64,000 bases of DNA from an uncultured Chitinophagaceae bacterium (GTDB lineage Bacteria; Bacteroidota; Ignavibacteria; UBA10030; UBA8401). A program made the translations under genes and the position numbers. The stretch covers positions 6,103 through 70,102 of the forward strand of contig CAYLMV010000004.1 of assembly GCA_964384415.1 (NCBI GenBank), given 5' to 3'. The notes under the pieces are model-generated. The model had not been told where the DNA came from. It did no database searches and saw only the letters and a program-made list of their open reading frames with translations. Positions 359 through 58,823 of this stretch are shown here, piece after piece (position 1 is the stretch's first letter; every line of letters begins with the position of its first letter).

Positions 359-377
359 CCTAGGGAGAGCTTCTTAT

Positions 378-10229: not shown

Positions 10230-12038
10230 ATGAGGCTAAAACTGATCATGGAAAAAATCTCCTCTGTGAGCGCTGGAAGACTGCCGCTCTTCGTGCTCAT
10301 CTTTTTCCTGATGCTCATGGCAGCGAGAGAATCTCTACAGGCCCAGCCGTCGGCCATTACCACCTACTGCAATCCGATCGACATCAACTATCAATACAAC
10401 TTCGAGCAGATCAACGAAAACATATCATACCGCTCCGGCGCCGACCCGGTGATCGTGAACCACAACGGTGAGTATTATCTCTTCGTGACAAATTCGGGGG
10501 GTTGGTGGCATTCAAAGGATCTGCTCCGCTGGGAATATGTTGTGCCGGACAAATGGCCGATGGAAGATATCTGTGCGCCGGCCGCATTGTCGGTCCGCGA
10601 TACGCTTTATTTATTCCAATCCACTTTCATTCCGCGGCCGATCCTGTTTAGCACCAAACCTGAAACGGGACACCTTCAGTTCTTCAACCGGCTTATGCCT
10701 GATCTTCCGGACTCCGTCAAGGGTCCATGGGACCCGGATATTTTCTGGGATGCGGAAAAAGATCGGTGGTACCTCTATTGGGGCTCCTCAAATCTCTATC
10801 CCATTTACGGCATCGAGCTGGACCATCACAACCGGTTGGTGTACAGCGGAAAACCAAAGGAACTGATCTATCTGCATCCCGAGCGCCACGGATGGGAAAG
10901 ATTCGGTCAGGACCACACTGGGACGATCAATCCCTATGTGGAAGGGGCCTGGATGACCAAACATGAGGGCAAGTATTATCTCCAGTATGCGGCTCCCGGA
11001 ACGGAATACAACGTGTATGCAAACGGTACGTATATTGGAGACGATCCTCTCGGTCCCTTCACCTACGCTCCCTATAATCCCGTCTCCTACAAACCAGGGG
11101 GTTTTATGGCGGGGGCGGGCCACGGAAACACGTTCCAAGACAACTACGGCAATTACTGGAACACCGGAACGCCCTGGATCGGATTCAACTGGACCTTCGA
11201 GCGCCGCATCGCGATGTTCCCGACTGGTTTCGATTCCGACGGCCAGATGTACGCCAATACTCGCTTTGGAGATTTTCCGCAAACGTTGCCGAAGTCACGC
11301 TGGACAAAAAGCGATGATCTGTTTGCCGGCTGGATGCTGCTCTCATACAAGAAACCCGTCGCCGCCTCGTCCGCTCGCGATACCTTTTATGCCAGCTGCG
11401 TCACTGACGAGAATCCGCGGACGTTCTGGGTGGCCGCCGCAAACTCACCGGCCGAATGGCTTGCGATCGATCTTGGGCATGTTGACGACATCAAAGCAGT
11501 GCAAGTGAATTATGCCGATTACAAATCGAATATTTTTTCGAGCGATTCGACGATCTACACGCGATTCACAATCTCATCCTCTGTCGACGGAAAAGAGTGG
11601 AGAACAATCGCCGATCTTTCGAAAGAAAATCGAGATCGCCCGAATGCCTACATTGAGTTGCCGTCGACGGTGAAAGCGCGGTACATTCGATACAATCATC
11701 TCTACGTTGCGTCCCCCAATCTTGCCATCAGCGATATTCGTGTCTTCGGATACGGCGGCGAGCGGCTTCCCGATCCGCCTGCAGGCTTCTCCGTTCGCAG
11801 GGAAACGGACAGGCGGAATGCGATTGTTCAATGGAAGGGAGTTCCGGGGGCCGTTGGCTACAACATTCGCTGGGGGATACGGAGAGACAGACTGTATGAA
11901 ACGTACCAGGTTTTTGCAGACATGGAGACGAAACTCGAAATCCGGGCGCTCACCACTGAACAAGGATATTACTTTGCCGTTGAGACCTTTAATGAAAGGG
12001 GAGTCTCGGCGCTCAGTGAGGTCGCAGTTTGTCCCTAG
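10230..12038 (+). CDS. GH43-like beta-propeller glycoside hydrolase with C-terminal F5/8 type C (discoidin/CBM32-like) and Fn3-like domains
   Basis: ADPVIVNHNGEYYLFVTNSGGWWHSKDLLRWEYV and YVEGAWMTKHEGKYYLQYAAPG are GH43-type propeller blades. FWVAAANSPAEWLAIDLGHVDDIKAVQVNY is discoidin-like. There is a signal peptide. An alternative ATG lies at 10248. Confidence 0.65.
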   Translation: MRLKLIMEKISSVSAGRLPLFVLIFFLMLMAARESLQAQPSAITTYCNPIDINYQYNFEQINENISYRSGADPVIVNHNGEYYLFVTNSGGWWHSKDLLRWEYVVPDKWPMEDICAPAALSVRDTLYLFQSTFIPRPILFSTKPETGHLQFFNRLMPDLPDSVKGPWDPDIFWDAEKDRWYLYWGSSNLYPIYGIELDHHNRLVYSGKPKELIYLHPERHGWERFGQDHTGTINPYVEGAWMTKHEGKYYLQYAAPGTEYNVYANGTYIGDDPLGPFTYAPYNPVSYKPGGFMAGAGHGNTFQDNYGNYWNTGTPWIGFNWTFERRIAMFPTGFDSDGQMYANTRFGDFPQTLPKSRWTKSDDLFAGWMLLSYKKPVAASSARDTFYASCVTDENPRTFWVAAANSPAEWLAIDLGHVDDIKAVQVNYADYKSNIFSSDSTIYTRFTISSSVDGKEWRTIADLSKENRDRPNAYIELPSTVKARYIRYNHLYVASPNLAISDIRVFGYGGERLPDPPAGFSVRRETDRRNAIVQWKGVPGAVGYNIRWGIRRDRLYETYQVFADMETKLEIRALTTEQGYYFAVETFNERGVSALSEVAVCP

Positions 12039-12156
12039 GTATCGCCGGCTCGGCGGCGGAAAATCATTGGGCTTGTGTTGAGCATCCTCTCACACCCCAG
12101 ATGCTGAAGATGGTTCGCTCAATCAGATTGACTCAAACGGAATAGGAGAAAATGGA

Positions 12157-14277: not shown

Positions 14278-14351
14278 GAAAAGTGGTCAGCGTGCTTAGC
14301 ACGCCGATCTGATCCCGTAATACTGCTCATCTCACATACTCTCACTGCGCA

Positions 14352-28419: not shown

Positions 28420-28684
28420 GTATTATACTAAATATATGAATCTTTAAAGATTTATAGAAGCGAATCGTTGTCTGGCGGAAAGAAAAATGGAGCGTGCACG
28501 TAACCGAATCAGCTCCCGTTCAATATCAGCCTTTGTCATCATACGTTGATTCGCGAAAACGATCCCATGAGGAACGAATCTTTAGCATCTTTCATGCGTA
28601 AGAATCAATGGGAGTTGAACGCCGCTGAATATCATCCCGGTTCAATCGCTCCCGGTTTCGCATTTGAATCAAAGAGACTACACC

Positions 28685-29926
28685 ATGCACGAATCCCCTC
28701 AACATGCCAGCTTCGAGGACGATGTTCGGCATTTGACCTCCAAGTACGTCGGGGTCTGGCACGAACTTCCAGATGCTGAGCCGGAATTCAATCGCCGATT
28801 CACCCAATGGCAGCAGCGTGAAAATGAGAGACAAGTGTCGCAACAGCTCCAAAAAGCTCCCCGCTCGTATGGAGTATACGATTCATTGACGGATGATGAC
28901 AAAGCCCATATCTCGCTCGACGTAATGAAGTCAGTTGCCGGATCATCGCTGTTGTCGCGTGAAATACAAAACGATAGGTTTTTCACGGAATCAGAGAAGG
29001 TAACAAGGCGCTTTTTGAATGAGGCAAAGGCCTTTGATCCGACCCTGTCTGAAGGGGATCTTCATCAGGCGCTGCGGAATCTCTGGGTATTCAACAGCAT
29101 TCAATTGTTTACAGGAAAAAGCATTCTGCTCACTCCCTCGTCATTCGCATACAGTCTTTTGTATCCCTACGTTGACAACGGGCTCGATGCCGCAGAGCGT
29201 ACAGCGGAAGACAAAATCGGGTTGGTTCGCTGGATCTCGAAATGGTTTCGCGGGAATGGATGCCCGCCCATCGATGATTTGACGAACAAGATCGGGCGGC
29301 TCCTTTCCATGATAAGTGAAGAATACCCGCGCAAGGAATTCCCCAAGGTATATCATAGCCTGCATGCTATTCTCTCTGCACAGCAGAAGAGCATCCTGTT
29401 CCAATATGACCAGTCGGCACTCGATGATACATATCTCTTGACAGTGACAGTGGAAAAAGGGGGGACGTCCGTTCTGGCCGACGGATACCTGGCGGCGGGG
29501 GATCTGAGTGCGAGTTCAGCCGATGCTATCTTTGAATACGGGGTTGTGCTTCAGTTAATCGATGACCTGCAGGATCTCGGGGAGGACAATACTTCCGGCC
29601 ACGAGACTCCATTTCAAAGGTACGCTGAGAGGAGTGAAACCGAGAAAATTACGCAACGGCTCCTCCGATTTTCCGGACGGTGCGCCACCCACCTGGGCAA
29701 AGAAGATAATTCGCGAAGTGATTCAATTCAACAGATGATCGAGCGAAGTTGCACTTTCCTTATTCTCGATGCAGTTGCTCAACACTTTGTTCACTATTCC
29801 GAACAATTTCTCCATAGAATTGAATCTGCGATGCCCTTACGTCCCGCTTTTTTGCGGGAACTGCATAAGGAAAGGGAGTTACGCCAATCCCGGTATTCAA
29901 AGGAGGCCGCGCTAAGTCTTCATTAA
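28685..29926 (+). CDS. Divergent class I isoprenoid-synthase-fold protein (trans-prenyltransferase-like), function unknown
   Basis: I re-picked the start to the ATG at 28685. The second Asp-rich region fits the polyprenyl-synthase pattern: EKGGTSVLADGYLAAG...FEYGVVLQLIDDLQDLGED, compare K..a......GA.LAG...fG..fQ..DD..D. The first motif is degenerate (LLYPYVDNGLDAAER). The assignment is by motif pattern only. Confidence 0.45.
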   Translation: MHESPQHASFEDDVRHLTSKYVGVWHELPDAEPEFNRRFTQWQQRENERQVSQQLQKAPRSYGVYDSLTDDDKAHISLDVMKSVAGSSLLSREIQNDRFFTESEKVTRRFLNEAKAFDPTLSEGDLHQALRNLWVFNSIQLFTGKSILLTPSSFAYSLLYPYVDNGLDAAERTAEDKIGLVRWISKWFRGNGCPPIDDLTNKIGRLLSMISEEYPRKEFPKVYHSLHAILSAQQKSILFQYDQSALDDTYLLTVTVEKGGTSVLADGYLAAGDLSASSADAIFEYGVVLQLIDDLQDLGEDNTSGHETPFQRYAERSETEKITQRLLRFSGRCATHLGKEDNSRSDSIQQMIERSCTFLILDAVAQHFVHYSEQFLHRIESAMPLRPAFLRELHKERELRQSRYSKEAALSLH

Positions 29927-35954: not shown

Positions 35955-36644
35955 ATGCAAAGACAGAACGTCCGCCGTTTATTCGATTCTATTGCCCATC
36001 GTTACGATCTCCTGAATCATCTTCTGAGCGGGGGGATAGATTTCTATTGGCGCCGCGCGGCTATTGATGCGCTCAGGTCATCCGCGCCAAAGAGGATACT
36101 CGATGTTGCTACCGGAACTGCCGATCTGGCGATAGCGTCGCTCCGCTTAAACCCCGCTGAAGTAATCGGTGTCGATATCTCCACACCTATGCTCGAACTG
36201 GGAAGGCGGAAGGTCGAAGCAAAGAACGCTTCGGCTGTCATTCATCTGCAGGAAGGGGAAGCTGAGCATCTGGAATTTCCCAGCGGTGATTTTGACGCCG
36301 CGATCGTAGCGTTTGGGGCGCGCAATTTTGAGAACCTCGCTGGGGGACTCAGGGAGATGAATCGTGTCCTCAGGAAGAGGGGAAGAATTGTCGTGCTTGA
36401 GTTTTCAAAACCGCGGGCATTTCCCATCCGGCAAATATATTTTTCTTACTTCCGCCATATTCTCCCCCTTGTGGGAAGGCTGATCTCAAGAGAGAAACAG
36501 GCATACCAATATCTTCCCGATACGGTAATGGCATTCCCGGACGGCGAAGAGTTTGTCCGGATTCTCAGGGATGCCGGTTTTTCCAGCATCACGGAACAAC
36601 GATTGACCTTCGGAATCGTCTCAATATATTGCGGCGAGAAATAA
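35955..36644 (+). CDS. ubiE: Demethylmenaquinone/ubiquinone C-methyltransferase (UbiE/MenG family)
   Basis: VRRLFDSIAHRYDLLNHLLSGGIDFYWRR is the UbiE N-terminal signature. The SAM motif is ILDVATGTADLA. At 229 aa the length is typical. Confidence 0.85.
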   Translation: MQRQNVRRLFDSIAHRYDLLNHLLSGGIDFYWRRAAIDALRSSAPKRILDVATGTADLAIASLRLNPAEVIGVDISTPMLELGRRKVEAKNASAVIHLQEGEAEHLEFPSGDFDAAIVAFGARNFENLAGGLREMNRVLRKRGRIVVLEFSKPRAFPIRQIYFSYFRHILPLVGRLISREKQAYQYLPDTVMAFPDGEEFVRILRDAGFSSITEQRLTFGIVSIYCGEK

Positions 36645-36680
36645 GAGAGACTAACTAGCCAGTAAAAGGAATCACTAACA

Positions 36681-37517
36681 ATGACCGACAGAGTAATCCG
36701 GGTTGGACATAGTCCCGATCCCGATGACGCATTTATGTTCTACGGTTTGTCGAGCGGGAAAGTTAAGCTTGAAGGAATCCACATTGAACATATGCTGGAA
36801 GATATTCAATCGCTCAATGTTCGTGCAATGAAAGCGGAACTCGAAGTGACGGCGATTTCGGCCCATGCGTATCCTTACGTCTCGGGTAAATATTGGATCA
36901 TGGCGACCGGCGCAAGCATGGGAGAGGGCTACGGACCGGTGATCGTATCGAAGAAATTCAAAACCCTCGAAGAGCTCAAAGGCAAGAGAGTCGCGACCCC
37001 GGGGAAACTCACCACGGCGACCCTGATCTTCAAGACGTTCACACAGGGGATCGAGAACGTCGACATACCGTTCGATCAGATCATGGAGAGGGTTTCAAAC
37101 GGTGAGTTCGACGCCGGACTGCTCATCCACGAAGGGCAGCTCACCTACAAAGCCGAGGGGTTTAACAAGGTGCTGGACTTTGGCGAGTCGTGGCAGAAAG
37201 AATCGGGCGGGCTGCCGCTGCCTTTGGGTCTTGATGTCGTCAGGAAAGACCTGGGCGAAGACCTGGCGCGAAAACTTTCTTACGGGCTCAAGCAGTCTAT
37301 TCACTACGGCTACACGCACCAGAACGATTCCATTCCGTACGCTCTGAAATGGGGGAGAGGCATCAACCAGAAGCTCGGAGAGCAATTCGTGAAAATGTAC
37401 GTAAGCGAGTTGACGATCGATATGGGTGAAAAGGGAAAGCAAGCGCTCGAACGTCTCTTCACGCTGGCGGGACAAAAAGGACTCATTCCTCCAGTGGCGG
37501 AAATCCAGCTCTTTTAA
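36681..37517 (+). CDS. mqnD: MqnA/MqnD-family protein (PF02621 type), best fit 1,4-dihydroxy-6-naphthoate synthase MqnD
   Basis: The N-terminus IRVGHSPDPDDAFMFYGL resembles the MqnD pattern (G.SPCPND.F.FYAL) more than the MqnA pattern (ISYLN..P). It has a periplasmic-binding-protein-like length (278 aa) and follows ubiE by 36 nt. Confidence 0.6.
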   Translation: MTDRVIRVGHSPDPDDAFMFYGLSSGKVKLEGIHIEHMLEDIQSLNVRAMKAELEVTAISAHAYPYVSGKYWIMATGASMGEGYGPVIVSKKFKTLEELKGKRVATPGKLTTATLIFKTFTQGIENVDIPFDQIMERVSNGEFDAGLLIHEGQLTYKAEGFNKVLDFGESWQKESGGLPLPLGLDVVRKDLGEDLARKLSYGLKQSIHYGYTHQNDSIPYALKWGRGINQKLGEQFVKMYVSELTIDMGEKGKQALERLFTLAGQKGLIPPVAEIQLF

Positions 37518-37538
37518 CCAAAGCCAAAACGATATCTC

Positions 37539-38405
37539 ATGCGCCTGGGCGAACTCTTCCGACGGTTTAGCAAGGGGATCATCATCGCCACGGTGCTGGT
37601 CGTCATCGAGAACATTGCGTGGATCGCCGAGCCGTCCCTTTTCGGCAACGTCATCGATGCCCTCATCGAAAAAGCGGCGCTGCCAGTCACGGCCACGTTC
37701 ATCCTTCCGTTGTCAATCTGGATCTCCGTATTTCTCCTCAACTCAGGAGTCGGGGCTCTTCGCCGCGCTCTCGATCCGAGGATCTTTCTGAAAATGTTTA
37801 CCGAAATTGCCACCGACGTTGCAATATCGGCCAAAGAGAGGGGGGACTCGGTTTCGAAGACCGCCGCACGGGCTGAGCTGTCGCGCGAGTTCATTACGTT
37901 CGCGCAGTACCGCGTCCCGGATATCATCGAACAGACAATCTCGATCGGCGGTGCGGTTTTTGCCCTTGTTTTCTTCGACTGGAGAATCGCCTTCGCATGC
38001 ATTTTCATTGTTCTTCCGCTTCTTTTGATTTCGCGGATTTACAACAAGCGGGTACTCACAATCCAAAAAGACCTGCATGATACAAGGGAAGACGCCTATG
38101 ATGTGTTTTCCAGCAAAGATCCTGAGAAAGTGCGGTCCTATTACACGAGACAATCAAAAGCCGAGCAAAAAATTGCAAATTGGGGAGCGTTCAACTTTGG
38201 AGCGATGCGGGTTTTCCTTCTAATGATTTTTCTTGTCGTTCTTTATATCGCTATCGACCTGGACGATTTCAGCACGGGGAGCATCTATTCGATAGTCGCC
38301 TACCTCTGGACGTTCGTCACTTCGTCCGAATATCTGCCGGAATTAATGGAAAGCTGGACCTCGCTGAAGGACATATCGCGAAGGTTGATGACGGAGAGTG
38401 TTTGA
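37539..38405 (+). CDS. ABC-exporter-type six-helix transmembrane domain protein with no ATPase domain
   Basis: About six predicted transmembrane helices are arranged like a type-I ABC exporter transmembrane domain (GIIIATVLVVIENIAWIAEPSLFGNVIDALI at the start). The ORF stops at 288 aa, and there is no Walker A/B or signature motif here or in a neighbouring ORF. It lies 21 nt after mqnD. Confidence 0.55.
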   Translation: MRLGELFRRFSKGIIIATVLVVIENIAWIAEPSLFGNVIDALIEKAALPVTATFILPLSIWISVFLLNSGVGALRRALDPRIFLKMFTEIATDVAISAKERGDSVSKTAARAELSREFITFAQYRVPDIIEQTISIGGAVFALVFFDWRIAFACIFIVLPLLLISRIYNKRVLTIQKDLHDTREDAYDVFSSKDPEKVRSYYTRQSKAEQKIANWGAFNFGAMRVFLLMIFLVVLYIAIDLDDFSTGSIYSIVAYLWTFVTSSEYLPELMESWTSLKDISRRLMTESV

Positions 38406-38493: not shown

Positions 38494-39585
38494 TTACGCT
38501 GCCTTCGCTCTTGGAAAGACCTTTTTTATGTCGTAAAGCGTGCCTCTCTGCACCGCGTCAAACCCCGATTCGTGGATGAGCTGAATGCACTCTTCGGTGT
38601 TCGTTTTGTTGACAAAGTTCGCCGCCGCATGAACATTCTCTTCGAGGAGCGTCCCGCCGAAATCATCGGCCCCGAAATGGAGGGCAATCTGTCCGGTCTT
38701 TTTTCCCTCTGAGAACCACGAAGCCTGTATGTGGGGAAAATTGTCGAGGTAGATCCTCGAGAATGCGATCATCTGCAGATAGCGTGTCGCCGTGGCATAG
38801 TGAGGGATAATTTTTTCCAGGGGAGTGTTGCCCGGCTTGAAGCTCCACGGCACGAACGCCGTAAATCCACGATGCTCATCCTGGAGCTTCCGGATGCTTT
38901 CCAGGTGCTCGAGGATATCCTCATCGTTCTCGAGATGTCCATACATCATCGTCGCCGTCGATTTGTAGCCGATCTTGTGAGCCTCGCGCATGACACTCAG
39001 CCATTCTTCCGATGTTCCCTTTTTGCTGCTGATCTTCTTCTTCACGCGGTCCGAGAGAATTTCGGCCCCGCCGCCGGGGAGCGAACGAAGCCCGGCATTC
39101 CAAAGTTGTTTCAGCACCTCATCTATTGGCAGGTTCGCTACGCGTGACATGCCGATAACTTCGGAGGTCGAGAAATAGTGGGGATAGATTTGGGGCACCT
39201 CGGCGATTGTGCGCCGGACGAGTTCGAGATAATAGTCGAAGGGAATTGCCGGATTCACTCCTCCCTGCAGCAGCGCAGTCGTTACGCCTTTAGCGGCCGC
39301 GTCCTTCAGGTTGCGGAGCATATGGTCGACGGAGTAGGTGTATTCTCCCTGTTCGCCCGGATGGCGGTAGAATGCGCAAAAGATGCAATCGACATTGCAG
39401 ACGTTCGTATAGTTGGGGTTCGTATCGACGACGAACGTTATTTGCGGGGCCGGGTTCTTCTTGAAGCGGATGTTGTTCGCGAGATCAGCGAGGTCGAGGA
39501 GTTCGGCATTCCGGAGGAGGAAGAGCCCTTCGCTTTCTGAGATGCGCTCGCCGTTTCGAATCTTGGAGTAGAGTGCCGATTGCAT
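38494..39585 (-). CDS. mqnC: Radical SAM menaquinone (futalosine pathway) enzyme, best fit cyclic dehypoxanthine futalosine synthase MqnC
   Basis: The cluster motif is NYTNVCNVDCIFCAFYR. It also has the blocks LLQGGVNP, LPGGGAEIL and TATMMYGH. The FTAFVPWSFKPGNT block fits my recollection of MqnC (..F..W.F.) rather than MqnE (FIPLAF). Confidence 0.65.
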   Translation of the reverse strand: MQSALYSKIRNGERISESEGLFLLRNAELLDLADLANNIRFKKNPAPQITFVVDTNPNYTNVCNVDCIFCAFYRHPGEQGEYTYSVDHMLRNLKDAAAKGVTTALLQGGVNPAIPFDYYLELVRRTIAEVPQIYPHYFSTSEVIGMSRVANLPIDEVLKQLWNAGLRSLPGGGAEILSDRVKKKISSKKGTSEEWLSVMREAHKIGYKSTATMMYGHLENDEDILEHLESIRKLQDEHRGFTAFVPWSFKPGNTPLEKIIPHYATATRYLQMIAFSRIYLDNFPHIQASWFSEGKKTGQIALHFGADDFGGTLLEENVHAAANFVNKTNTEECIQLIHESGFDAVQRGTLYDIKKVFPRAKAA

Positions 39586-39599: not shown

Positions 39600-40406
39600 T
39601 TAGATTGATACCGAGTAACCTGCCGCTTTTAATTCCTTGATGAGGCTGAAACTGATTTCTTCCAGCTTCACGACAATTTCTTTTTTCTGTACGCCGGGAA
39701 TGTTTTTCGGCACCTGACTGTCTTTCGGATAGATGCAGCAGACCCTGTTCGGACCTATTTTCCCGACGAGATATCCCAACTCGTACATCGCACTCGGAAT
39801 ATCGTCCGCCGGAACGAGATAAAACGCGAAGTGCGTTGGCGGCTGTTTGTCGAAACTGGTAAGGAGCGCATCGCTTCCGCCGCCCGTGCGCTGATACACG
39901 GACGCCTCGATACCAAGCTCCTTGAGGAATGCGACGAGCTGCTGAAGAAGCGGATTATTCGCCGCAGAGACAATGAAGACGCGATTGCTGGCCGTTGGCG
40001 TCGTTTTCGCCGGAGCAGTTTTGGGGACCTCCACAACTTTTGGCTTCTCGGCTTCCAAGGGCGGTTTGGGGGACGGCGGTTCGGCCGGCGCTTTGACCGG
40101 TGCTGGTTCTACATGTGCCGGCGCAGAGGTCTCGGCAATCTTCAAGGCATCCTTGAGGGCATCGTTCACTTTCTGAGCGGAGGACTGATAGAAGTACGCC
40201 CCGTTCTCGTCGTTTGCTATCTGTGCGCGGATACCTGCCCCTTTCTCGCCGCACTTTGCAAGAGCGTCGAGACAATTTTTCCGCCAGAGGAGATACTGGC
40301 TCTGCATCTTTGCGTTGTACCCGGAGAACTCGAGACCTCCCTCGGGAACAAGCTTATCTCCCTGTTGAATCAATTCCCGAATTTTAGCCGCTAATGCTGC
40401 ATCCAT
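39600..40406 (-). CDS. Two-domain protein: helical N-domain, Pro/Ala/Lys-rich linker, C-terminal TIR-like (COG4271/PF10137-type) / nucleoside-2-deoxyribosyltransferase-like domain
   Basis: I re-picked the start to the ATG at 40406 (MDAALAAKIRELIQQG). The linker is APAHVEPAPVKAPAEPPSPKPPLEAEKPKVVEVPKTAPAKTTP. The C-domain is RVFIVSAANN...HFAFYLVPADDIPSAMYELGYLVGKIGPNRVCCIYPKDSQVPKNIPGV, which carries the (F/Y)ELGY..GK signature. The gene is packed into the mqn operon with gaps of 19 and 14 nt. Confidence 0.5.
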   Translation of the reverse strand: MDAALAAKIRELIQQGDKLVPEGGLEFSGYNAKMQSQYLLWRKNCLDALAKCGEKGAGIRAQIANDENGAYFYQSSAQKVNDALKDALKIAETSAPAHVEPAPVKAPAEPPSPKPPLEAEKPKVVEVPKTAPAKTTPTASNRVFIVSAANNPLLQQLVAFLKELGIEASVYQRTGGGSDALLTSFDKQPPTHFAFYLVPADDIPSAMYELGYLVGKIGPNRVCCIYPKDSQVPKNIPGVQKKEIVVKLEEISFSLIKELKAAGYSVSI

Positions 40407-40425: not shown

Positions 40426-42294
40426 TCAACCAGGTTGAATAGATACTTCGATCTCTTCGTAGAGCTTTCGGAACACCTCCATTGCCGTTCTTTCCCGTTC
40501 GCCGAGCCGGTAGTTGAATCCTTCAAGATATTCTTGCGTCTCGGAAGGCGTTAATCCGATTTGTTTACCGTGAAGCGCTCCCACAATATCGAGCCTTGCT
40601 TCGTTTCTGTCGAGGGCAGTTTCCAACAAGATCTGCAATTCCGATTTCTTCTCCGCTGAGAGCGACTTCTTAACGGCCCAAGCTGCAAAGACAAATGGAA
40701 GTTTTTGCCACTCGTACCATTCTCTCGCAAGGTCGAACACGAGTTCGAATCCGGGGAGCCCGTACTTATTCCGCCGAAGCGCCTCATCGCCGATGAGGAG
40801 CACCGCATCGTACGAACTGTAGTCGTTTACTCCCGAATGCAATCTGGCAAACGTGGCGCGGACCCCGTGCTTCTTCAGCAGGAGTACTTGAAGTAGCCGG
40901 ATCGACGTCGCCGTGTCGTCGGTAATGCCGATGCGTTTTCCTTCCAGGTCGCCCCATCCTTCTTTCGAGAAGAGCATGACGCTTTTCACCTGGTCGCGCG
41001 TCGCGATGCAATAATTCATCAGTTCAAGGGTGTCGTCCTGCGAAAAATAATCCATCAGAGAAAAAATGCCGGCATCGATTTCCCCCTTCGATGCGAGTTC
41101 GCCCATCCTGCGGGGGACCACCGGCAGAATTTTGAATTGCCGCTTTTCGAACCCCGCGTAGAAGGGGACAGAATTCAGGTACGGGATTTTGCCGATGACG
41201 TTATCTGTGTGCAGGCGGAGAGGGTTGTAGTAGGCGTCGCGTTCGACCGGTATTTTCCCAGCATCTCTGATGATCTTGATGATCTGCTCTTTGGCCAGGC
41301 TCATCGGGCTTACGGCTCCGGCATCGTGGGCGATGTTCTCGCCGCCGACAATACCGTCCATATCGTCCGCCCCGAAGTTCAGCGCTACCGAGGCGACTTC
41401 TTCCGTGAGCATGACCCAGTATGCTTTGATGTGTGGAAAATTATCCAGCATCAAGCGGGAAACAGCGATCGTTTTGAGATCGTCGATCGCAGAGGTGAAT
41501 TCATTTTTCGGTTTGATGCCCGTGACCCCGGGCTGGAACGCCAGAGGTATGAACGTAAGGAATCCGCCCGTCTCGTCCTGCGCCTCCCGGAGCTTCATCA
41601 TGTGCACGACCCGCTCTTCGTACGTCTCGATGTGGCCGTAGAGGAGAGTTGAGTTTGTAGGGATTCCGAGTTTATGCGCGGTTCGATGGACTTCGAACCA
41701 CGTTCTTGCACCGATCTTTTGATTGAAAAGAAGTTTTCGCACTCTCTCGGAAAAGACCTCAGCGCCGCCGCCGGGCATGGTGCGCAAGCCGGCCTCTTTG
41801 AGTTGAAGCAGGACCTCCTCGATAGGCATCTTGAATTTTTTGTGGAAGAAATCAATCTCGACGGCGGTGAACGCCTTCACATCAACGGCGGGGAAGTTCT
41901 TCTTTATCTGCCTCACCATATCGAGGTAATAATTCCATTCCCAGTCGGGGTGAAGCCCCCCGGTGATATGCACTTCTTGAATCTCCGGGGTCAGTTTGGC
42001 GAGTATGCTTTCTATCGTCATCTCGTAGGCGTTCGGCTTCCCCGGCTTCGTCGCAAAATCACAGAATTTGCACGAAAGAACGCAGATGTTGGTCGGCTCG
42101 ATCTTCTGGTTCAGCACAAAGTAAATTGAATCGCCGCTCTTTTGCTGCTGAACCGCATGAGCCATTTTGCCGACCGAGACGAGATCGGGGGAGTTGAACA
42201 TCGTCACGCCGTCGGCGAGTGAGAGCCGAATGCCGTTCTGGACTTTGTCCCAGATCGGGACGAGCTGCTGATCTCTAAAAATTATATCGATCAC
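40426..42294 (-). CDS. mqnE-mqnA: Fusion protein: radical SAM aminofutalosine synthase (MqnE-like) N-terminal domain + chorismate dehydratase (MqnA) C-terminal domain
   Basis: I re-picked the start to the GTG at 42294, 19 nt after the UbiD-like stop; the 704-aa track ORF overlaps that gene. The rSAM motifs are TNICVLSCKFCDFA, TGGLHP, MPGGGAEVF, TLLYGH and GGFLTFIPLAFQPG. The C-terminal 258 aa (about 41202-40429), IGKIPYLNSVPFYAG...GEIDAGIFSLMDY...VLLIGDEALR...LPFVFAAWAV, match the MqnA pattern. Confidence 0.7.
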   Translation of the reverse strand: MIDIIFRDQQLVPIWDKVQNGIRLSLADGVTMFNSPDLVSVGKMAHAVQQQKSGDSIYFVLNQKIEPTNICVLSCKFCDFATKPGKPNAYEMTIESILAKLTPEIQEVHITGGLHPDWEWNYYLDMVRQIKKNFPAVDVKAFTAVEIDFFHKKFKMPIEEVLLQLKEAGLRTMPGGGAEVFSERVRKLLFNQKIGARTWFEVHRTAHKLGIPTNSTLLYGHIETYEERVVHMMKLREAQDETGGFLTFIPLAFQPGVTGIKPKNEFTSAIDDLKTIAVSRLMLDNFPHIKAYWVMLTEEVASVALNFGADDMDGIVGGENIAHDAGAVSPMSLAKEQIIKIIRDAGKIPVERDAYYNPLRLHTDNVIGKIPYLNSVPFYAGFEKRQFKILPVVPRRMGELASKGEIDAGIFSLMDYFSQDDTLELMNYCIATRDQVKSVMLFSKEGWGDLEGKRIGITDDTATSIRLLQVLLLKKHGVRATFARLHSGVNDYSSYDAVLLIGDEALRRNKYGLPGFELVFDLAREWYEWQKLPFVFAAWAVKKSLSAEKKSELQILLETALDRNEARLDIVGALHGKQIGLTPSETQEYLEGFNYRLGERERTAMEVFRKLYEEIEVSIQPG

Positions 42295-42313: not shown

Positions 42314-44086
42314 TTATTTCCAGTATTCGTCCCAACGTTGATCCACGAGCCTGACGATCTTCTCGTCCATAAGGAGAGGATCGGGATAGCCTGGTTTCCA
42401 TGTTGCATCGATGCCGAGGGTTCCATGGTAGACGGGGGAGATGCCGACCAGCTTTTGTTCCCTAAATTGAACGTCTCTTTCGCAGTCGAAACGCGTAAAG
42501 ATTCCCCAAATATAACTCTCCTGGCGATGAATATCCACATCCGGGCTCACGACCGCGAGAAGTTTAATGCCATCGATGATCGGCGATCTCAGGAGTCTTT
42601 TCAACACGGCTCCGCCTTCATGCTTCACCTTGACGATCAACAGCGTATCCTCGATGATGATCGTTTCCACTATCCTTCGGTCATGCTCGGGCAGCTGGGC
42701 AATGAAGTGCTGCGTCTTTCGCGGTACCCGGAACCTGCTTCTCGGCCGCTGTTTTCTCGTTGCATCGACAATCATCTTGCTTCCGAGATTCATTTTATAC
42801 GATGTGAAATCGAGCGTGTCCAACGGCACCTTCGGCAGCAGCATGAAATCGAAATGCGGATCAAAATTTTCGCGCACGGCTCGAAGGACCGAAGGAAAAT
42901 CTCTCGGGTCCACTTCTTCCGGGACGGTGACAAGGCATTTCGTGAGGGAGAGCTGTTGTGTGCCCATTAATCCCAGGGCCGTTTTCATCCCTTCTTTTTG
43001 GTATCGCTCCTCGACGGAGACAGCGAGGAAGTTATGAAACCCTGCCTCGTAGTACGCCCAAAGGCCCTTGACTTCGGTGTGAAGCAGTTTCGCGAGGGGA
43101 CCGAGAATTCTCTGCGTTGCGTCGCCGAGGAATTTGTCCTCCATCGGCGGGATGCCGACGATGGTGGCCGGATAGATCGGATCTCGCCGGTGTGTCATCG
43201 CGGTAATATGAAATACCGGAAACTCTGCCGCCGCAGAGTAATGTCCAAAATGATCGCCAAACGGTCCCTCGGTCCGTCGCTCCTTTGGAGGGACGATTCC
43301 TTCGAGAATGAATTCTGCATTTGCGGGGACGTTGATGGAGATCGAACGACCGCCGACAAGCTGCGTGCTTTTTTTTCGGAGGAACCCGGCAAACATCGCC
43401 TCGTCGATCCCCTCCGGCAGAGGGGCGACGGTTGCCAGGAGCAAGGCCGGGTCAGTCCCGAGGGCGACGGCGACTTCCAGCGGCCTGTCGAGTTTCATCG
43501 ATTGGAAAAAATGGAAGCCGCCTCCTTTCTGGATCTGCCAATGCATGCCGGTTGTCCGTCCGTCGAAAACGTGCATCCGGTACATGCCGATGTTTCGTTT
43601 GCTGTTGCGCGGATCGTACGTAACGACCTGCGGCAATGTGATAAACCGTCCTCCATCCTGGGGCCAGCACTGGATGATTGGTAACTCACCCAGGTTTGGA
43701 TTCTCGACAACTTCCTGAGAGGGGGCGATGCTGATGTCGCTCGTTCTTGAAGAGAGGAAGCGCCGTAGCATTGCGCGATGTTTCGTGAGGGACTTTGCGC
43801 TGGGGGGGATGGCGTGCTCGAAGAAGGAAATGAGTTCTTCGCCCAGGCGGTCCGGATGTTCGCCGAGTGCAAGCTCAATACGCCGCTCGCTCGCCAACGT
43901 GTTGATGACGAGAGGATATTTTGCTCCCTTCACCTTTTCGAAGTAGAGAGCCGGTTTTCCTTCCCTCAACGCACGAATCGCAATCTCGGAAATCTCAAGG
44001 ATGGGGTCGACCTCGACTTTTACCCGATGGAGTTCTCCGGACTTCTCGAGGTATTGGACAAATTCACGAAGAGCGGTAAATCGCAT
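42314..44086 (-). CDS. UbiD-family (prFMN-dependent) decarboxylase, menaquinone-biosynthesis type
   Basis: The N-terminus is MRFTALREFVQYLEKSGELHRVKVEVDPILEISEIAIRALREGKPALYFEKVKG. The protein is 590 aa and lies next to ubiX and a UbiA-family prenyltransferase in an mqn operon. Confidence 0.8.
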   Translation of the reverse strand: MRFTALREFVQYLEKSGELHRVKVEVDPILEISEIAIRALREGKPALYFEKVKGAKYPLVINTLASERRIELALGEHPDRLGEELISFFEHAIPPSAKSLTKHRAMLRRFLSSRTSDISIAPSQEVVENPNLGELPIIQCWPQDGGRFITLPQVVTYDPRNSKRNIGMYRMHVFDGRTTGMHWQIQKGGGFHFFQSMKLDRPLEVAVALGTDPALLLATVAPLPEGIDEAMFAGFLRKKSTQLVGGRSISINVPANAEFILEGIVPPKERRTEGPFGDHFGHYSAAAEFPVFHITAMTHRRDPIYPATIVGIPPMEDKFLGDATQRILGPLAKLLHTEVKGLWAYYEAGFHNFLAVSVEERYQKEGMKTALGLMGTQQLSLTKCLVTVPEEVDPRDFPSVLRAVRENFDPHFDFMLLPKVPLDTLDFTSYKMNLGSKMIVDATRKQRPRSRFRVPRKTQHFIAQLPEHDRRIVETIIIEDTLLIVKVKHEGGAVLKRLLRSPIIDGIKLLAVVSPDVDIHRQESYIWGIFTRFDCERDVQFREQKLVGISPVYHGTLGIDATWKPGYPDPLLMDEKIVRLVDQRWDEYWK

Positions 44087-44091
44087 GGAGG

Positions 44092-44643
44092 TTATTCCAG
44101 TTCTTCGGCTCTCCAGCCCTTTGATGTTCTCTCGCCGAGAACTCCGAGGAGTTTATCGGTGAAGGCCGAAATGTATTCATCGACAGACTTGGGGACAAAA
44201 TAGAGCGGCGGGGATATTGGCATGATGACGGCCCCGTTTCGCGACAGCTGCGCGCATTGTTCGAGCGATGTCGTGGATAGCGGAGTCTCACGGACGCAAA
44301 GTACTAATTTAAACCTCTCCTTCAAGGCAACCTGAGCGGACCGCGTAATTAACGTATCGCCGATACCCGAAGCAATTTTTCCGAGTGTGGATGTTGAGCA
44401 TGGCAGAATAACGCAGGCGTCGACATGATTGGAGCCTGAAGCGATCGGAGCGGCAAGGTCATCGTTCGAAAACTGGCGCTTCACAAACGGCTGAAGGTCT
44501 TTCTCGCTGAGGTTCAATTCATCTTTCAGCAGTATTTTTCCCCATTTGCTCATGACGAGATATTTTTCCGAACTCGATTGCCTGAGAAAATCGAGCGCAA
44601 ACGCCGCTCCCGACGAGCCGGTGATACCGACGACAATCTTCAT
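44092..44643 (-). CDS. ubiX: Flavin prenyltransferase UbiX
   Basis: MKIVVGITGSSGAAFALDFL is the flavoprotein N-terminus. The protein is 183 aa. Its start overlaps the upstream gene's stop by 4 bp (ATGA), and the UbiD-like gene starts 5 nt downstream. Confidence 0.85.
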   Translation of the reverse strand: MKIVVGITGSSGAAFALDFLRQSSSEKYLVMSKWGKILLKDELNLSEKDLQPFVKRQFSNDDLAAPIASGSNHVDACVILPCSTSTLGKIASGIGDTLITRSAQVALKERFKLVLCVRETPLSTTSLEQCAQLSRNGAVIMPISPPLYFVPKSVDEYISAFTDKLLGVLGERTSKGWRAEELE

Positions 44644-45473
44644 GAGATTACCGTCGGAAGAATGACCATCGCAAAGATGTTGAAGCCCAGCAAGATGTTG
44701 ATCCTAAAGAAGGCAAGCTCGACGTCATCCGCTTTCTTCTGCTCCAGGAACAGCAGCAGCCCGCTCAGAAGGAGGGGCGGAACGGCAACGAGTCCCTTGA
44801 GTGAATGGAAAAACAGAACCACGAGGACGAGGAAGGCGAGAAAATGAAGCCCTGCCGATATTTGCAGCGCGCGCTCTTTGCCAAACCGGGAAGGGAAGGA
44901 AAAGAGATTCGCTCCGCGGTCGAACTGTTCGTCCAATGTGGAGTAGATGATATCAAAACCGGATCCCCAAAAAAGGACAAACGTGGGAAGGATCAGGCCG
45001 GTGCTGAGGTTCGCGAATGATCCGGTGATCGCGAACCATCCTCCCAGGGGAGCCATTGCCATGCCAAGTCCGACTCCAAAGTGTGCGAGCGGCGTGAAGC
45101 GTTTGAGATAGGGATAGACAATAAACACGAACAGGGGAATCGGCGAGAGACGAAAACAGAAATCAGAAATCTGATATGCTGCCGCCAGATATAAGAAAAG
45201 AGCGCCAGTTAAAACGATGGAGACTTGCCAAAGAGTCAGCTTGCCGCTCGGCAATTCGCGACCCGTGGTTCGGGGATTTCTTTTGTCAATCTCCCTGTCT
45301 ATGATCCTGTTCAACGTCATGGCTACCGTCCGTGCGCCGACGGAGGCGAGAAGAACCAGAAGAAGCAGCTCGTTGGACGGTTTTTCTTTGGAGGCCAGAA
45401 ACACGCCGCTGTAGATCATCGGAAGCGTAAAGAGGGCGTGCTCTATTTTGATGAAATTGAGGAGCTTTTTCAA
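44640..45473 (-). CDS. UbiA-family polyprenyltransferase (menaquinone-pathway MqnP-like)
   Basis: It is a polytopic membrane protein with NRIIDREIDKRNPRTTGRELPSGKL, the UbiA Asp-rich motif, and a second motif region YSTLDEQFD. It is the first gene of the minus-strand mqn operon. Confidence 0.8.
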   Translation of the reverse strand: MKKLLNFIKIEHALFTLPMIYSGVFLASKEKPSNELLLLVLLASVGARTVAMTLNRIIDREIDKRNPRTTGRELPSGKLTLWQVSIVLTGALFLYLAAAYQISDFCFRLSPIPLFVFIVYPYLKRFTPLAHFGVGLGMAMAPLGGWFAITGSFANLSTGLILPTFVLFWGSGFDIIYSTLDEQFDRGANLFSFPSRFGKERALQISAGLHFLAFLVLVVLFFHSLKGLVAVPPLLLSGLLLFLEQKKADDVELAFFRINILLGFNIFAMVILPTVIS

Positions 45474-46828: not shown

Positions 46829-47617
46829 ATGAAATCGTTCGCTCATTTTATTTTGTTCGTGATGGTGACACTCTCGTTCACTCTTTCCACTGCCTCAGGC
46901 CAAACAAGAAACGTCGGCAGGGGAGTTAAAGTGACATGGTACGGCCATGCTGCATTCAAGGTCGAAACGGCGAAAGGCAAGGTAATCCTGATTGACCCAT
47001 GGCTCGACAACCCAAAAGCTCCGAGCAGCGCCCGGAACATTGACAAAGTCGATCTTATTCTCGTGACGCACGGTCATTCCGATCATATCGGCAACACCGT
47101 TGAGCTCTCGCAGAAGTTCGATGCCCCCGTTGTCTGCAATAGCGCTCTGGCCGCCTACCTGACGGGCAAAGGAGTGAAGAAGACGATCATTCTGGACTAC
47201 TCCGGTTCCTACGAAGCGGACAATGTGAAGATCGTCATGGTTCACGCAGACCATAGCTCGACGATTGAAGACGGAGGAGCAAGAATCGATGGAGGACTCG
47301 CCGCAGGATTTGTGATCCAGTGCGAGAATGGCGTGACCGTTTATCACGCGGGCGACACCGGCGTTTTCGGCGACATGAAGCTCATCGCGGATCTCTATAA
47401 GCCGGACATCGTGATGATTCCGATCGGAGGAGTGTATACGATGGGACCCCGCGAGGCCGCGAAGGCCTGCGAGCTGCTCAATCCAAAATGTATTATACCG
47501 ATGCACTACGGAACATTTCCCGCGCTGACGGGCGCTCCCGAAGAAATGAAGGGATATTTGCCCGTCCAATTGAAGAGCAGAGTGGTGGATATACTTCCGG
47601 GCGACACGATTAACTGA
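46829..47617 (+). CDS. Metallo-beta-lactamase-fold hydrolase (UPF0173-like), with signal peptide
   Basis: It has VTWYGHAAFKVE, the LILVTHGHSDHIG metal motif, and HAGDTG. Confidence 0.7.
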   Translation: MKSFAHFILFVMVTLSFTLSTASGQTRNVGRGVKVTWYGHAAFKVETAKGKVILIDPWLDNPKAPSSARNIDKVDLILVTHGHSDHIGNTVELSQKFDAPVVCNSALAAYLTGKGVKKTIILDYSGSYEADNVKIVMVHADHSSTIEDGGARIDGGLAAGFVIQCENGVTVYHAGDTGVFGDMKLIADLYKPDIVMIPIGGVYTMGPREAAKACELLNPKCIIPMHYGTFPALTGAPEEMKGYLPVQLKSRVVDILPGDTIN

Positions 47618-47632
47618 CGAACTGAGAAGAAA

Positions 47633-48634
47633 GTGAAGATAGGTTCCCTCGAAATAAATAATCCTATACTCCTCGCGCCGATGGAAGACGTGACGGACCC
47701 GCCGTTTCGCCTTGTTTGCAAACGGCTCGGGGCCGATATTGTCTACACCGAATTTGTGAACTCCGAGGGACTTGTCAGGAACAGCGAGAAGACGAAGAAG
47801 AAGATGTTCTTCTCCGAAGAAGAACGCCCTTTCGGAATTCAAATCTACGGAGGCGAGGAATCGTCGATGGGCGGAGCGGCCGCGATTGCCGAGAGCCTTA
47901 ATCCGGATATTATCGATATCAACTGCGGCTGTTGGGTGAAAGATGTTGCCATGAGGGGAGCCGGCGCGGGGCTGCTGAAGGATTTGCCGAGAATGGAGAG
48001 GATTGTCTCCACCGTCGTCAAGGCGACGACGAAGCCTGTCACTGTCAAAACGCGTCTCGGGTGGGATGAAAATTCCATACGGATTGTGGAAGTGGCTAAG
48101 ATGCTGGAGGGAGTAGGCGTGCAGGGCCTGACAGTCCATTGCCGCACCCGCGCTCAGGCGCACAAGGGTTTTCCCGACTACTCCTGGATTCCCAGAATAA
48201 AAGAAGCGGTGAAGATTCCGGTCATCGTCAACGGAAATATTTTTGAGCCCGCGGATGTGCAGCGCGTATTTGACGACACCGGCTGCGATGGAGTGATGAT
48301 CGGCAGGGGCGCCATTGACAACCCCTGGATCTTCCGTCAGGCAAAGGAATTCATGCAGACGGGAAAAGTGTCCGTTTTCGTTTCATTGGACGAACGCGTT
48401 GCGCTTTGCATTGAACACCTGAAACTTTCGATCGAGTACAAAGGCGACCGGACCGGTATCCTCGAAATGAGAAAGCATTATTCAGGCTACCTTCACGGCA
48501 CGCCGAATGTCGCAAAACTTCGTGCAGAATTGATGACCTATACTGCTTTCGATCCCATTGTCGAACGGCTGCATCGGTTCACGGAAGAAGCGCTCATTCG
48601 TCCCGAGTCATCCGAATCGATTGTCTTTGTATAA
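47633..48634 (+). CDS. dusB: tRNA-dihydrouridine synthase (Dus family)
   Basis: It has LAPMEDVTDPPFRLVCKRLGADIVYTEFV, INCGCW and VTVKTRLGW. The start codon is GTG. Confidence 0.8.
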   Translation: MKIGSLEINNPILLAPMEDVTDPPFRLVCKRLGADIVYTEFVNSEGLVRNSEKTKKKMFFSEEERPFGIQIYGGEESSMGGAAAIAESLNPDIIDINCGCWVKDVAMRGAGAGLLKDLPRMERIVSTVVKATTKPVTVKTRLGWDENSIRIVEVAKMLEGVGVQGLTVHCRTRAQAHKGFPDYSWIPRIKEAVKIPVIVNGNIFEPADVQRVFDDTGCDGVMIGRGAIDNPWIFRQAKEFMQTGKVSVFVSLDERVALCIEHLKLSIEYKGDRTGILEMRKHYSGYLHGTPNVAKLRAELMTYTAFDPIVERLHRFTEEALIRPESSESIVFV

Positions 48635-57444: not shown

Positions 57445-57740
57445 TTTTTGAATCCTTTCAGAGTGAAAGGTAATACCTAATCCGTAGAATTACAAGGAGC
57501 GATGCATTACGCTAGTGTTACGGTTTGGAAGGTCGCTCGACGCATGCGGGCATGATACTCCTCGAGGTGCGTCATTCCGTAGCGGTTAAGTCGGGGATCT
57601 TTGCCTCAACTGTTCAATGTACTAAGATTGCAACACCACAGGCATGGCGTGCTTCGTCAATGCGGCTTGATGGACCTCATTGCACCCGAGCCGCCATTTT
57701 GCTACTTTGTCGCATTCGTTACTTACCCACAGGAGGAACA

Positions 57741-58823
57741 ATGAAAGCTCTCACCATGATAATGTCAATCCTGCTTATGCTGACGATGGCCCAATCCCAA
57801 ACGAAAAGAGAGGTGAAAAAGCTTCCCCCCGATGTCGTGCCCGCCCCGAAGACGTACGATGGAAAAATCTGGGGCATGACGTTCAGCGATTTCTCTTACG
57901 TCGCTCAGTCGGAAGACGCGGTTCAAAAAGGGACGAATTCGTTTGCATTCCGGCGCATATACCTCGGCTACGACCAGAGCATTTCCGATCAATTTTCGGC
58001 ACAAATACTTCTTGAGGCCAGCAATGCAGACACCTCGTTTACGGGGACGATGGACTTTCATGTGAAGCACGCTTATCTCGAATGGAAGGAACTTGTTCCA
58101 TCCTCGAGCATTTTCTTCGGCCTTTCCCAGACTCCTTCGATGGCGCTCTCCGAAAAAATGTGGGGCTACCGATCGCTCGAGAAGGTAATTCTGGATCGGA
58201 ACGGTTTAGTCCAGACAAGCGACATGGGTGTGGGATTGAAGGGTCAGTTTGCGTCGGATGGGAGTGTAGGGTATGCCCTAATGGCCGGTAACGGACAGGG
58301 AATCAGGTTGGAGAACGACAAGCTAAAACGTTTTTACGGTGAATTCTATTTTCAACCGATAAAGGGGGGAGTGGTAGAATTGTATACCGACTACGAAAAC
58401 GGAGCGAACGCCGAATCCAAGCTGACGGGCAAGGGACTTCTCGGATACCAATCGCCGGGTGCATCAATCGGGGCGGAGGGGTTTTACCGAACCGTGAAGA
58501 ACGGCGCGGCAGGAACGGCGGGAGCCGATTCGAATATTGTCGGAGCTTCTGCATACACATCATTTCATATTGCAGAGTCGTTCCGCGGCGTTCTTCGCGC
58601 CGACTTTTACGACGCCAATTACGCTGTAACAACCTCCGGTCTTCGCGAAATATTCGGCTTGGCAGGACTCGACTACGAACCTGCAAAGGATATCGATGTT
58701 ATCCCAAACGTACTTTACACGCACCGGCTGTATAAGAACAAACAGGGCGGGGATCCCTCGTTGACCGACGATATCACTGTACGGCTGACCGTTGCCTACG
58801 CATTTTCCGCTCGCGTTCCATGA
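57741..58823 (+). CDS. Outer-membrane porin (OprO/P-like beta-barrel)
   Basis: I re-picked the start to the ATG at 57741, which is preceded by AGGAGG at 57731-57736. It has the signal peptide MKALTMIMSILLMLTMAQSQ and amphipathic strands (FRRIYLGYDQ, HVKHAYLEWK), and ends in VRLTVAYAFSARVP. Confidence 0.55.
   Translation: MKALTMIMSILLMLTMAQSQTKREVKKLPPDVVPAPKTYDGKIWGMTFSDFSYVAQSEDAVQKGTNSFAFRRIYLGYDQSISDQFSAQILLEASNADTSFTGTMDFHVKHAYLEWKELVPSSSIFFGLSQTPSMALSEKMWGYRSLEKVILDRNGLVQTSDMGVGLKGQFASDGSVGYALMAGNGQGIRLENDKLKRFYGEFYFQPIKGGVVELYTDYENGANAESKLTGKGLLGYQSPGASIGAEGFYRTVKNGAAGTAGADSNIVGASAYTSFHIAESFRGVLRADFYDANYAVTTSGLREIFGLAGLDYEPAKDIDVIPNVLYTHRLYKNKQGGDPSLTDDITVRLTVAYAFSARVP

Follow-up and report, generated by a model that had tools for sequence, protein, structure and literature searches.

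A TIR-like gene fixed in a menaquinone operon

Gene X, a minus-strand gene lying between mqnE-mqnA and mqnC of the futalosine route of menaquinone biosynthesis, was analyzed in a 64,000-nt stretch of DNA (hereafter the window) from an uncultured Chitinophagaceae bacterium placed by GTDB in Ignavibacteria (GenBank assembly GCA_964384415.1, contig CAYLMV010000004.1, positions 6,103 to 70,102). The analysis indicates that X is very probably a descendant of the PADLOC candidate family PDC-S35 and a vertically inherited member of the menaquinone cluster in an Ignavibacteria-like lineage, which is a structural and evolutionary statement. The wider reading, in which X is a TIR-like protein that was domesticated, is linked to menaquinone biosynthesis as a whole, and carries a nucleosidase site centered on a glutamate (Glu), is put forward tentatively, as possible but short of probable. 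Bacterial TIR-like proteins of the CAP12/Pycsar clade are known as immune NAD+-cleaving enzymes (NADases). The novelty lies in a TIR module of a defense family that has become fixed in a cluster of primary metabolism. A lineage-wide, vertically inherited, and strongly constrained copy inside a vitamin K2 operon would clearly exemplify the domestication of a defense module for physiology within bacteria. X also marks a conserved, uncharacterized component of the menaquinone clusters of Ignavibacteria-like Bacteroidota, a class widespread in the environment.

The gene starts with ATG and encodes a protein of 268 amino acids (aa). The stop codon of mqnE-mqnA at position 40426 leaves a gap of 19 nt upstream of X, and the mqnC start at 39585 leaves 14 nt downstream; neither promoter-like nor terminator-like sites were seen in these two gaps, whose geometry indicates co-transcription of X with the menaquinone genes. 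An alternative TTG start at 40526 would overlap mqnE-mqnA and is not used by the homologues, all of which begin at the MD.. position. The composition of X (GC 0.539, GC3 0.613) matches that of the neighboring genes, as in a native gene. The open reading frame (ORF) is not a chance frame, since there are hundreds of full-length homologues and both folded domains show dN/dS values of 0.01-0.12.

Domain architecture and predicted fold

The AlphaFold model of X comprises an N-terminal domain of four helices (residues 3-19, 32-50, 53-68, and 77-93), a disordered linker, and a C-terminal TIR-like alpha/beta domain (Table 1). The N-domain is the best conserved part of the family: in an alignment of 34 sequences it has 27 invariant columns and the motifs PEGGLEFSGYNAKMQSQYLLWRKNCLD and DENGAYFYQ.SAQ, and it was seen solely in fusion with TIR-type domains. 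Linker length varies between about 40 and about 200 aa in the homologues. The C-domain matches PF10137 with 36.9 bits (gathering score 24.7) over aa 142-242, which corresponds to profile positions 1-115 of 119. An earlier note on this DNA had described a minus-strand ORF of 268 aa inside the operon with the same two gaps, made up of a helical N-domain, a Pro/Ala/Lys/Glu linker, and a C-domain of the TIR-like PF10137 type, and all these features were confirmed.

The best Foldseek match of the model was TIR-STING (9lmq), with E-values of 1.4e-3 and 1.5e-3, probabilities of 0.99-1.0, and low TM-scores. A sequence search of the PDB with the family profile yielded only noise (E 0.3). Modeling the C-domain separately gave a poorer prediction (pLDDT 68.8 versus 80-93 in the full-length model) and did not sharpen the fold search. 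In the full-length model, Glu209, Arg173, and Asp202 are located at or just past the C-terminal ends of beta-strands, from which we infer that they would share one pocket. A role of X as a dedicated flavodoxin-like reductant for the two radical S-adenosylmethionine (SAM) enzymes was also considered and dropped, as the beta1 loop is variable and the FMN-phosphate motif is absent.

Relationship to PDC-S35 and to CAP12/Pycsar TIR proteins

Comparison with the PADLOC profiles gave 77.8 bits for PDC-S35 and 22.7 bits for PycTIR, while no NCBIfam model matched X. X itself aligns to the PDC-S35 profile only at positions 97-258, i.e., over its C-domain. The homology of the N-domain was recognized indirectly, through a Zixibacteria homologue (L041), because this protein matches the profile from end to end (262 bits, positions 7-262 of 264; PF10137 134 bits) and shares with X the N-domain motifs GG..GYN.K.QS.Y..WR and D..G.YFYQSSAQ. 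On this sequence evidence, X is probably a diverged member of PDC-S35 over its full length. The L041 gene has no mqn context and is accompanied by PD-(D/E)XK-like and MNT/HEPN-like genes, and another outgroup relative adjoins integrase and SIR2_2 genes.

A search of 1.84 billion representative proteins returned 4366 relatives at E<=1e-3 and only 14 at E<=1e-30, which identifies X as a small, distinct branch. In the neighbor-joining tree the X clade is monophyletic and branches next to the canonical PDC-S35 proteins. The whole clade lacks the FIVHGHD motif after beta1 as well as the CC-loop insert of about 20 aa that ends in PRARQN before the FELGY helix, both of which are present in L041 and in the relatives P0136, P0138, P0139, P0142, P0143, and P0145. 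Against PF10137, the canonical relative scores 134 bits and X only 37 bits, and for P0123, P0125, and P0127 no match is on record. X resembles PDC-S35 in its two-domain plan, in the N-domain motifs shared through the Zixibacteria homologue, and in its adjacent position in the tree, and differs by the long disordered linker, the strongly diverged C-domain, and a neighborhood that is not defense-island-like. In the literature search, neither a published validation of PDC-S35 nor any paper mentioning it was found.

For the CAP12/Pycsar TIR clade, a catalytic Glu, a CC-loop beta-hairpin, and a requirement for oligomerization are reported as typical, and PF10137 TIR proteins cleave the N-glycosidic bond of NAD+ by means of this Glu (10.64898/2026.04.30.722052). 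X shares with effectors of this clade (SfTIR-STING, PycTIR, TIR-SAVED) the above-threshold PF10137 match, a predicted beta-alpha flavodoxin-like topology, and a Glu in the ..FE(L)G(Y).. context. It differs from them in having neither a cyclic-nucleotide sensor domain nor a partner cyclase, in the missing FIVHGHD motif and CC-loop insert, in its biosynthetic-operon slot, and in its vertical inheritance. Any NADase activity that X may have is unlikely to be constitutive. The TirB/C/D proteins of Dictyostelium are described as domesticated CAP12/Pycsar-type TIRs, some copies of which work independently of the catalytic Glu (10.64898/2026.04.30.722052). In their case, too, a TIR of immune type from this Pfam clade was drawn into host physiology, but they are eukaryotic, were acquired horizontally, and remain in immunity, whereas X was apparently recruited within bacteria into a primary-metabolism operon.

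Distribution and linkage to menaquinone genes

Among the 49 species-representative genomes that encode a relative, 47 carry X on the same strand directly beside mqnE-mqnA and/or mqnC. The identity of X drops across these loci to about 45%, while the flanking enzymes hold 70-95%. The same slot is occupied in the divergent representatives P0122, P0123, P0125, P0127, P0131, and P0362, and gaps of 10-20 nt surround X in the operons of groups A and C and of most of group B (these groups are described below). The only genes whose linkage to X is maintained throughout the arrangements are menG/ubiE and/or a prenyltransferase, either MqnP-like or MenA-like. No member of the X clade was found outside a quinone-gene neighborhood, only canonical PDC-S35 outgroups being located elsewhere; likewise, no defense-island or mobile context was found for the clade, integrase, SIR2_2, and MNT/HEPN-type neighbors occurring only in the outgroups. 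The linkage to mqn genes, proposed in the earlier note as a test of the association, is therefore recurrent and not a one-off. The same note had supposed that the arrangement was previously undescribed, in agreement with which our literature search found no paper joining TIR-like proteins with menaquinone or futalosine biosynthesis. Two X-bearing loci (L032 and L048) are filed under Synechococcus sp. and Acidobacteriota metagenome-assembled genomes; their gene content is Ignavibacteria-like, and these are probably binning or labeling errors.

Subgroups of X and selection

Three groups were distinguished. Group A, to which X of the window belongs, makes up 41 of the 47 GTDB species loci in which the gene is embedded in the operon, and has the motif ..MFELGY.., with Glu209 and Arg173 invariant and Asp202 near-invariant. 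Group B is a large group that includes L035 (over 120 clusters, 509 hits, labeled Ignavibacteria or Ignavibacteriales); it has the motif ..MFELGHF.. and the same Glu, Arg, and Asp residues, so that this set is kept over more than 150 sequence clusters of groups A and B. Group C (L045-L048, L053, L054, and P0126) is still located between mqnE-mqnA and mqnC. Its members read ..EL(M/I)ALGY.., i.e., Glu209 is replaced by Ala, Arg173 by His (TH..GIW for QR), and the Asp pair is lost.

The N-domain is the most conserved region in all groups, the Glu-less group C included. Its dN/dS was 0.02-0.12. For the C-domain, dN/dS was 0.01-0.08 in group A and 0.04-0.07 in the reduced loci of group B, and for the linker 0.07-0.58. 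In group C, the C-domain value was raised to 0.16-0.29, with 0.08-0.14 for the N-domain. Since the three residues were lost together in group C and the constraint on the C-domain is relaxed there, this pattern suggests that Glu, Arg, and Asp form one functional site in groups A and B.

As regards a compensating nucleosidase in group C, the extra genes of L047 and L048 were not nucleosidase-like when their translations were inspected by eye, no profile search having been run on them. In one group C locus (L053, 13696-14400, minus strand), a Cu-oxidase_4 gene (PF02578, YfiH/FAMIN-type) lies two genes past ubiE in the same orientation; this gene is absent from the window. Purine-nucleoside phosphorylase or deaminase activities are known in this family, and the L053 gene could therefore be a nucleoside-processing candidate.

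Decay and replacement of futalosine genes around X

A scan of metagenomes with the group B profile added 80 loci, and 88 classifiable loci, drawn from L035 and L050-L144, were compared. Futalosine neighbors are present beside X in about 62 of them and gone or decaying in about 26, the latter belonging to group B in all but a few cases. A full group B locus (L064) has the order BamA-holB-metG-ubiA-ubiX-ubiD-mqnE/A-X-mqnC, followed by the convergent Amidohydro_2-mqnD-ubiE and then by genes for a TonB-dependent receptor, TatD, and SDH. The reduced loci retain the same outer synteny, i.e., metG-X, then Amidohydro_2-ubiE, then the TonB-dependent receptor, and their intergenic gaps of 115, 80, and 25 nt are too small for the six missing genes. 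Genomes with a reduced locus include GCA_001802245.1, GCA_964581115.1, and CAZHOJ01.

Several loci were caught in intermediate states. One frameshift in mqnC near residue 266 is common to L085 and L129, which come from different samples, and a distinct one near residue 43 was found in L104. In L093 and L094, mqnC is reduced to a 62-aa remnant, mqnD being still there in L094. C-terminal remnants of mqnE-mqnA were identified in L083, L084, and L085, and L083 also has a remnant of mqnD. Since these decay states are not derivable from one another, the sequences indicate that the futalosine genes were lost more than once; the loci without intact futalosine neighbors are, moreover, scattered among full-locus relatives on the X tree.

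In six loci (L085 (7597-11093), L104, L129, L106, L111, and L087), ubiA-ubiX-ubiD-mqnE/A is replaced by a gene for a 297-aa prenyltransferase directly upstream of X. In NCBIfam this protein comes closest to models of 1,4-dihydroxy-2-naphthoate polyprenyltransferase, with 110 bits, under their cut-offs, and the JGI name agrees. It looks as if the futalosine route had been replaced repeatedly in Ignavibacteria, and such a replacement within the class is plausible because a complete men set was reported in Ignavibacterium album (PMC3362086). In every non-futalosine locus X is intact and retains the Glu motif; its dN/dS over the whole gene is about 0.1, and the constraint on it is equal in reduced and full loci. 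Judged at the locus level, the persistence of X does not depend on the futalosine genes. The lineages in which the route was apparently replaced, together with group C and its missing catalytic triad, constitute a natural experiment that points to the activities of X worth testing.

Search for a nucleosidase

The window encodes all steps of the futalosine route but the nucleosidase. As the earlier note had stated, mqnB/MTAN is absent from the window: no PNP_UDP_1 (PF01048) match was found among its 39 proteins in the Pfam scan, and tblastn with E. coli and H. pylori MTAN (approximate query sequences) gave no credible match, either within the window or across the 877 kb of related loci. Residues 62-114 of E. 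coli MTAN produced weak tblastn matches (E 4-6) in the C-domains of two group C proteins (L047 8537-8680 and L048 3214-3369), which are homologous genes and thus represent a single noise-level event.

The kinship to nucleoside 2-deoxyribosyltransferase (NDT)/DNPH1 enzymes that the earlier note had also drawn was rejected. X has no match to PF05014 at E<=0.1, hhalign against DNPH1 (an approximate query sequence) gave a probability of 0.1%, and neither NDT nor DNPH1 structures were among the top 50 Foldseek matches, so that the likeness is confined to the short ..YELGY.. motif. To MTAN (Pfs/MtnN) and MqnB, which have the PNP_UDP_1 fold, the TIR/flavodoxin-like X has no sequence or fold relationship; there may be only a functional analogy, as X holds the operon position of the nucleosidase step.

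Possible role of X and alternative explanations

A Glu-centered N-glycosidase site is probably retained in X, judging by the residues kept in groups A and B, and its substrate has probably changed, since the canonical NAD+-site features are gone. We propose that the C-domain would cleave or bind an N-ribosyl compound through Glu209, and that the N-domain would provide the oligomerization required by TIR domains. The substrates may be the adenosyl products of the SAM enzymes of the cluster, i.e., S-adenosylhomocysteine (SAH) from MenG/UbiE, 5'-deoxyadenosine from MqnC, and, where MqnE is present, aminofutalosine. MTAN of Campylobacter and Helicobacter serves several substrates, namely aminofutalosine, 5'-deoxyadenosine, and SAH. 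Instead of carrying out a dedicated MqnB step, X may perform a broad, MTAN-like service of this kind: it would split aminofutalosine to supply MqnC and rid the menaquinone SAM enzymes of SAH and 5'-deoxyadenosine. Such a role would account for both the operon slot and the survival of X after replacement of the futalosine route. This specific mechanism, a broad adenosyl nucleosidase, is possible, albeit doubtful; it is somewhat unlikely that X is the first TIR-fold enzyme in primary metabolism, a Glu-dependent N-ribosyl hydrolase replacing MTAN in Ignavibacteria. If the nucleosidase reading is true, X would bring a new enzyme fold to a step pursued as a drug target in Helicobacter, Campylobacter, and Chlamydia.

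Several points weigh against a Glu-centered enzyme of this kind. The disposal of SAH and 5'-deoxyadenosine is usually carried out by unlinked housekeeping genes. Group C keeps the operon slot without Glu, so part of the role of X needs neither the Glu site nor catalysis. The residues of the beta1 loop vary by subgroup (SAANN, SSSET, GEEND), an unusual feature if the substrate pocket is fixed. The structural support from Foldseek is weak (best E 1.4e-3), generic flavodoxin-like folds following close behind TIR-STING, and the MenA-like label of the replacing prenyltransferase is based on sub-threshold NCBIfam scores and JGI names.

The precise position of X, with mqnE-mqnA on one side and mqnC on the other in a cluster holding every other step, led the earlier note to propose a replacement of MqnB/MTAN, i.e., a dedicated, non-orthologous aminofutalosine/futalosine nucleosidase that supplies dehypoxanthine futalosine (DHFL) to MqnC. 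The positional part of this proposal stands, as the slot is kept in groups A and C and in most of group B; the TIR-like superfamily does perform N-glycosidic chemistry, with the Glu kept in A and B, and a PNP_UDP_1 gene was found neither in the window nor in the related loci. A dedicated enzyme is nonetheless quite improbable. X remains intact and constrained in the roughly 26 of 88 loci whose futalosine genes are gone or decaying, which is unexpected of a dedicated MqnB, and in six loci it stands behind a MenA-like prenyltransferase instead of ubiA-ubiX-ubiD-mqnE/A. Group C, moreover, occupies the slot without Glu, Arg, and Asp, and the complete men set of I. album (PMC3362086) makes route switching within the class plausible. 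Also proposed in that note was a defense-type gene embedded in an essential operon. As far as ancestry is concerned this was upheld, the best profile matches being PDC-S35 and PycTIR, the Glu being retained, and the outgroup relatives standing beside integrase, SIR2_2, PD-(D/E)XK-like, and MNT/HEPN-type genes. That X is at present an active anti-phage or abortive-infection NADase of the PDC-S35 type is highly improbable. Defense genes are typically patchy, while X is strictly vertically inherited in one slot across a class-level clade, its composition is native, and its dN/dS is low. X has neither the HGHD motif nor the CC-loop hairpin insert of the NADase clade, the PF10137 score erodes down to no recorded match in some members, and PDC-S35 itself has no published validation that we could find.

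Two further explanations were weighed. X may be a non-catalytic adaptor or scaffold for those late steps that are associated with the membrane and shared by both menaquinone routes (prenyltransferase, MenG/UbiE), with its N-domain and TIR-like domain, bridged by the flexible linker, binding partners or a ligand, in spirit like UbiJ/UbiK of ubiquinone synthesis. This would fit the prenyltransferase and/or ubiE as the only constant partners of X, the conservation of the N-domain even in group C, the long and hypervariable linker, and the erosion of the canonical catalytic-site motifs. We consider it rather unlikely, since Glu209, Arg173, and Asp202, kept over more than 150 clusters together with a very low C-domain dN/dS, look like an active or ligand-binding site, and no membrane-binding feature was seen in X. 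The other possibility is a housekeeping role unrelated to menaquinone, in NAD(P)/nucleotide turnover or signaling, with X riding a stable syntenic block. X indeed stays between metG and Amidohydro_2/ubiE whatever the fate of the futalosine genes, under equally strong selection in reduced and full loci. Such a passenger is distinctly unlikely given the close, co-transcription-like spacing of X (10-20 nt) within the operons of groups A and C and of most of group B, the quinone genes that still flank X after rearrangement (MenA-like upstream, ubiE convergent), and the failure to find clade members outside quinone-gene neighborhoods.

Neighboring genes and other features of the window

The coordinates of X, its parts, and the adjacent genes are presented in Table 1.

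Table 1. Gene X and the surrounding menaquinone genes in the window.
Feature	Position	Strand	Evidence and remarks
Gene X, domesticated PDC-S35/TIR-like protein (very probable), 268 aa	39600..40406 (incl. stop codon)	-	ORF/translation; PF10137 and PDC-S35 matches
X N-domain, four-helix, aa 1-95	40122..40406	-	Best conserved part of the family
X linker, disordered, Pro/Ala/Lys/Glu, aa 96-138	39993..40121	-	pLDDT below 50 (AlphaFold, residues 95-138)
X C-terminal TIR-like alpha/beta domain, aa 139-268	39600..39992	-	PF10137; pLDDT 80-93
Glu209 codon (..AMYELGY..), catalytic-Glu position of CAP12/Pycsar TIR domains	39780..39782	-	Role of Glu from preprint 10.64898/2026.04.30.722052
mqnE-mqnA fusion (aminofutalosine synthase + chorismate dehydratase-type PF02621 domain)	40426..42294	-	Directly upstream of X; TIGR03700 474.6 bits, PF02621 165.4 bits (profile searches)
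mqnC (cyclic dehypoxanthinyl futalosine synthase)	38494..39585	-	Directly downstream of X; TIGR03699 447.8 bits (cut-off 428.1)
Upstream part of X operon	42314..45473	-	MqnP-like UbiA, UbiX-like, and UbiD-like
MqnP-like UbiA prenyltransferase	44640-45473	-	PF01040; MqnP models 190-230 bits, under their cut-offs
UbiX-like	44092-44643	-	PF02441
UbiD-like menaquinone decarboxylase	42314-44086	-	PF01977; TIGR03701 497 bits
Convergent operon (menG/ubiE, MqnD-type, ABC_membrane_3)	35955..38405	+	Profile matches
menG/ubiE methyltransferase	35955-36644	+	PF01209 201.9 bits; TIGR01934 245.6 bits
MqnD-type PF02621 protein	36681-37517	+	PF02621 237 bits
Transmembrane-only ABC_membrane_3 protein	37539-38405	+	PF13748 93 bits

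The start of mqnE-mqnA, as judged by comparison with homologues, is likely the GTG at 42294. The fusion of mqnE with the mqnA-type PF02621 domain in one gene of about 620 aa is kept in every related locus examined, and because the MqnA-type domain is already fused to MqnE, the second PF02621 protein was labeled MqnD by elimination. The third gene of the ubiE-mqnD operon encodes, in groups A and C, a transmembrane-only ABC_membrane_3 protein (PF13748) without an ATPase domain. In its place group B has an Amidohydro_2 gene (PF04909; L035 10957-11886, minus strand), which the reduced loci preserve alongside X and ubiE. Among the NCBIfam models, none matched the Amidohydro_2 protein, and the ABC_membrane_3 protein showed only sub-threshold matches to ABC-transporter models.

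Four long ORFs of the window have no Pfam match, one at a threshold of 1e-5 (279-3671, plus strand, 1130 aa) and three at 1e-3 (46895-48163, minus strand, 422 aa; 57525-58823, plus strand, 432 aa; and 28664-29926, plus strand, 420 aa); some of them may be wrong-strand or over-extended. A polysaccharide-utilization stretch is located at 3684-16562 on the plus strand, where genes for a PorV-like protein, GH94, two glucoamylase-like proteins, GH43 with a discoidin domain, GH35/42, and GH3 were identified. One of the two glucoamylase-like proteins bears a type IX secretion tail, and the type IX secretion markers of the window (PorV, Por_Secre_tail) agree with the Bacteroidota/Ignavibacteria labels of all relatives.

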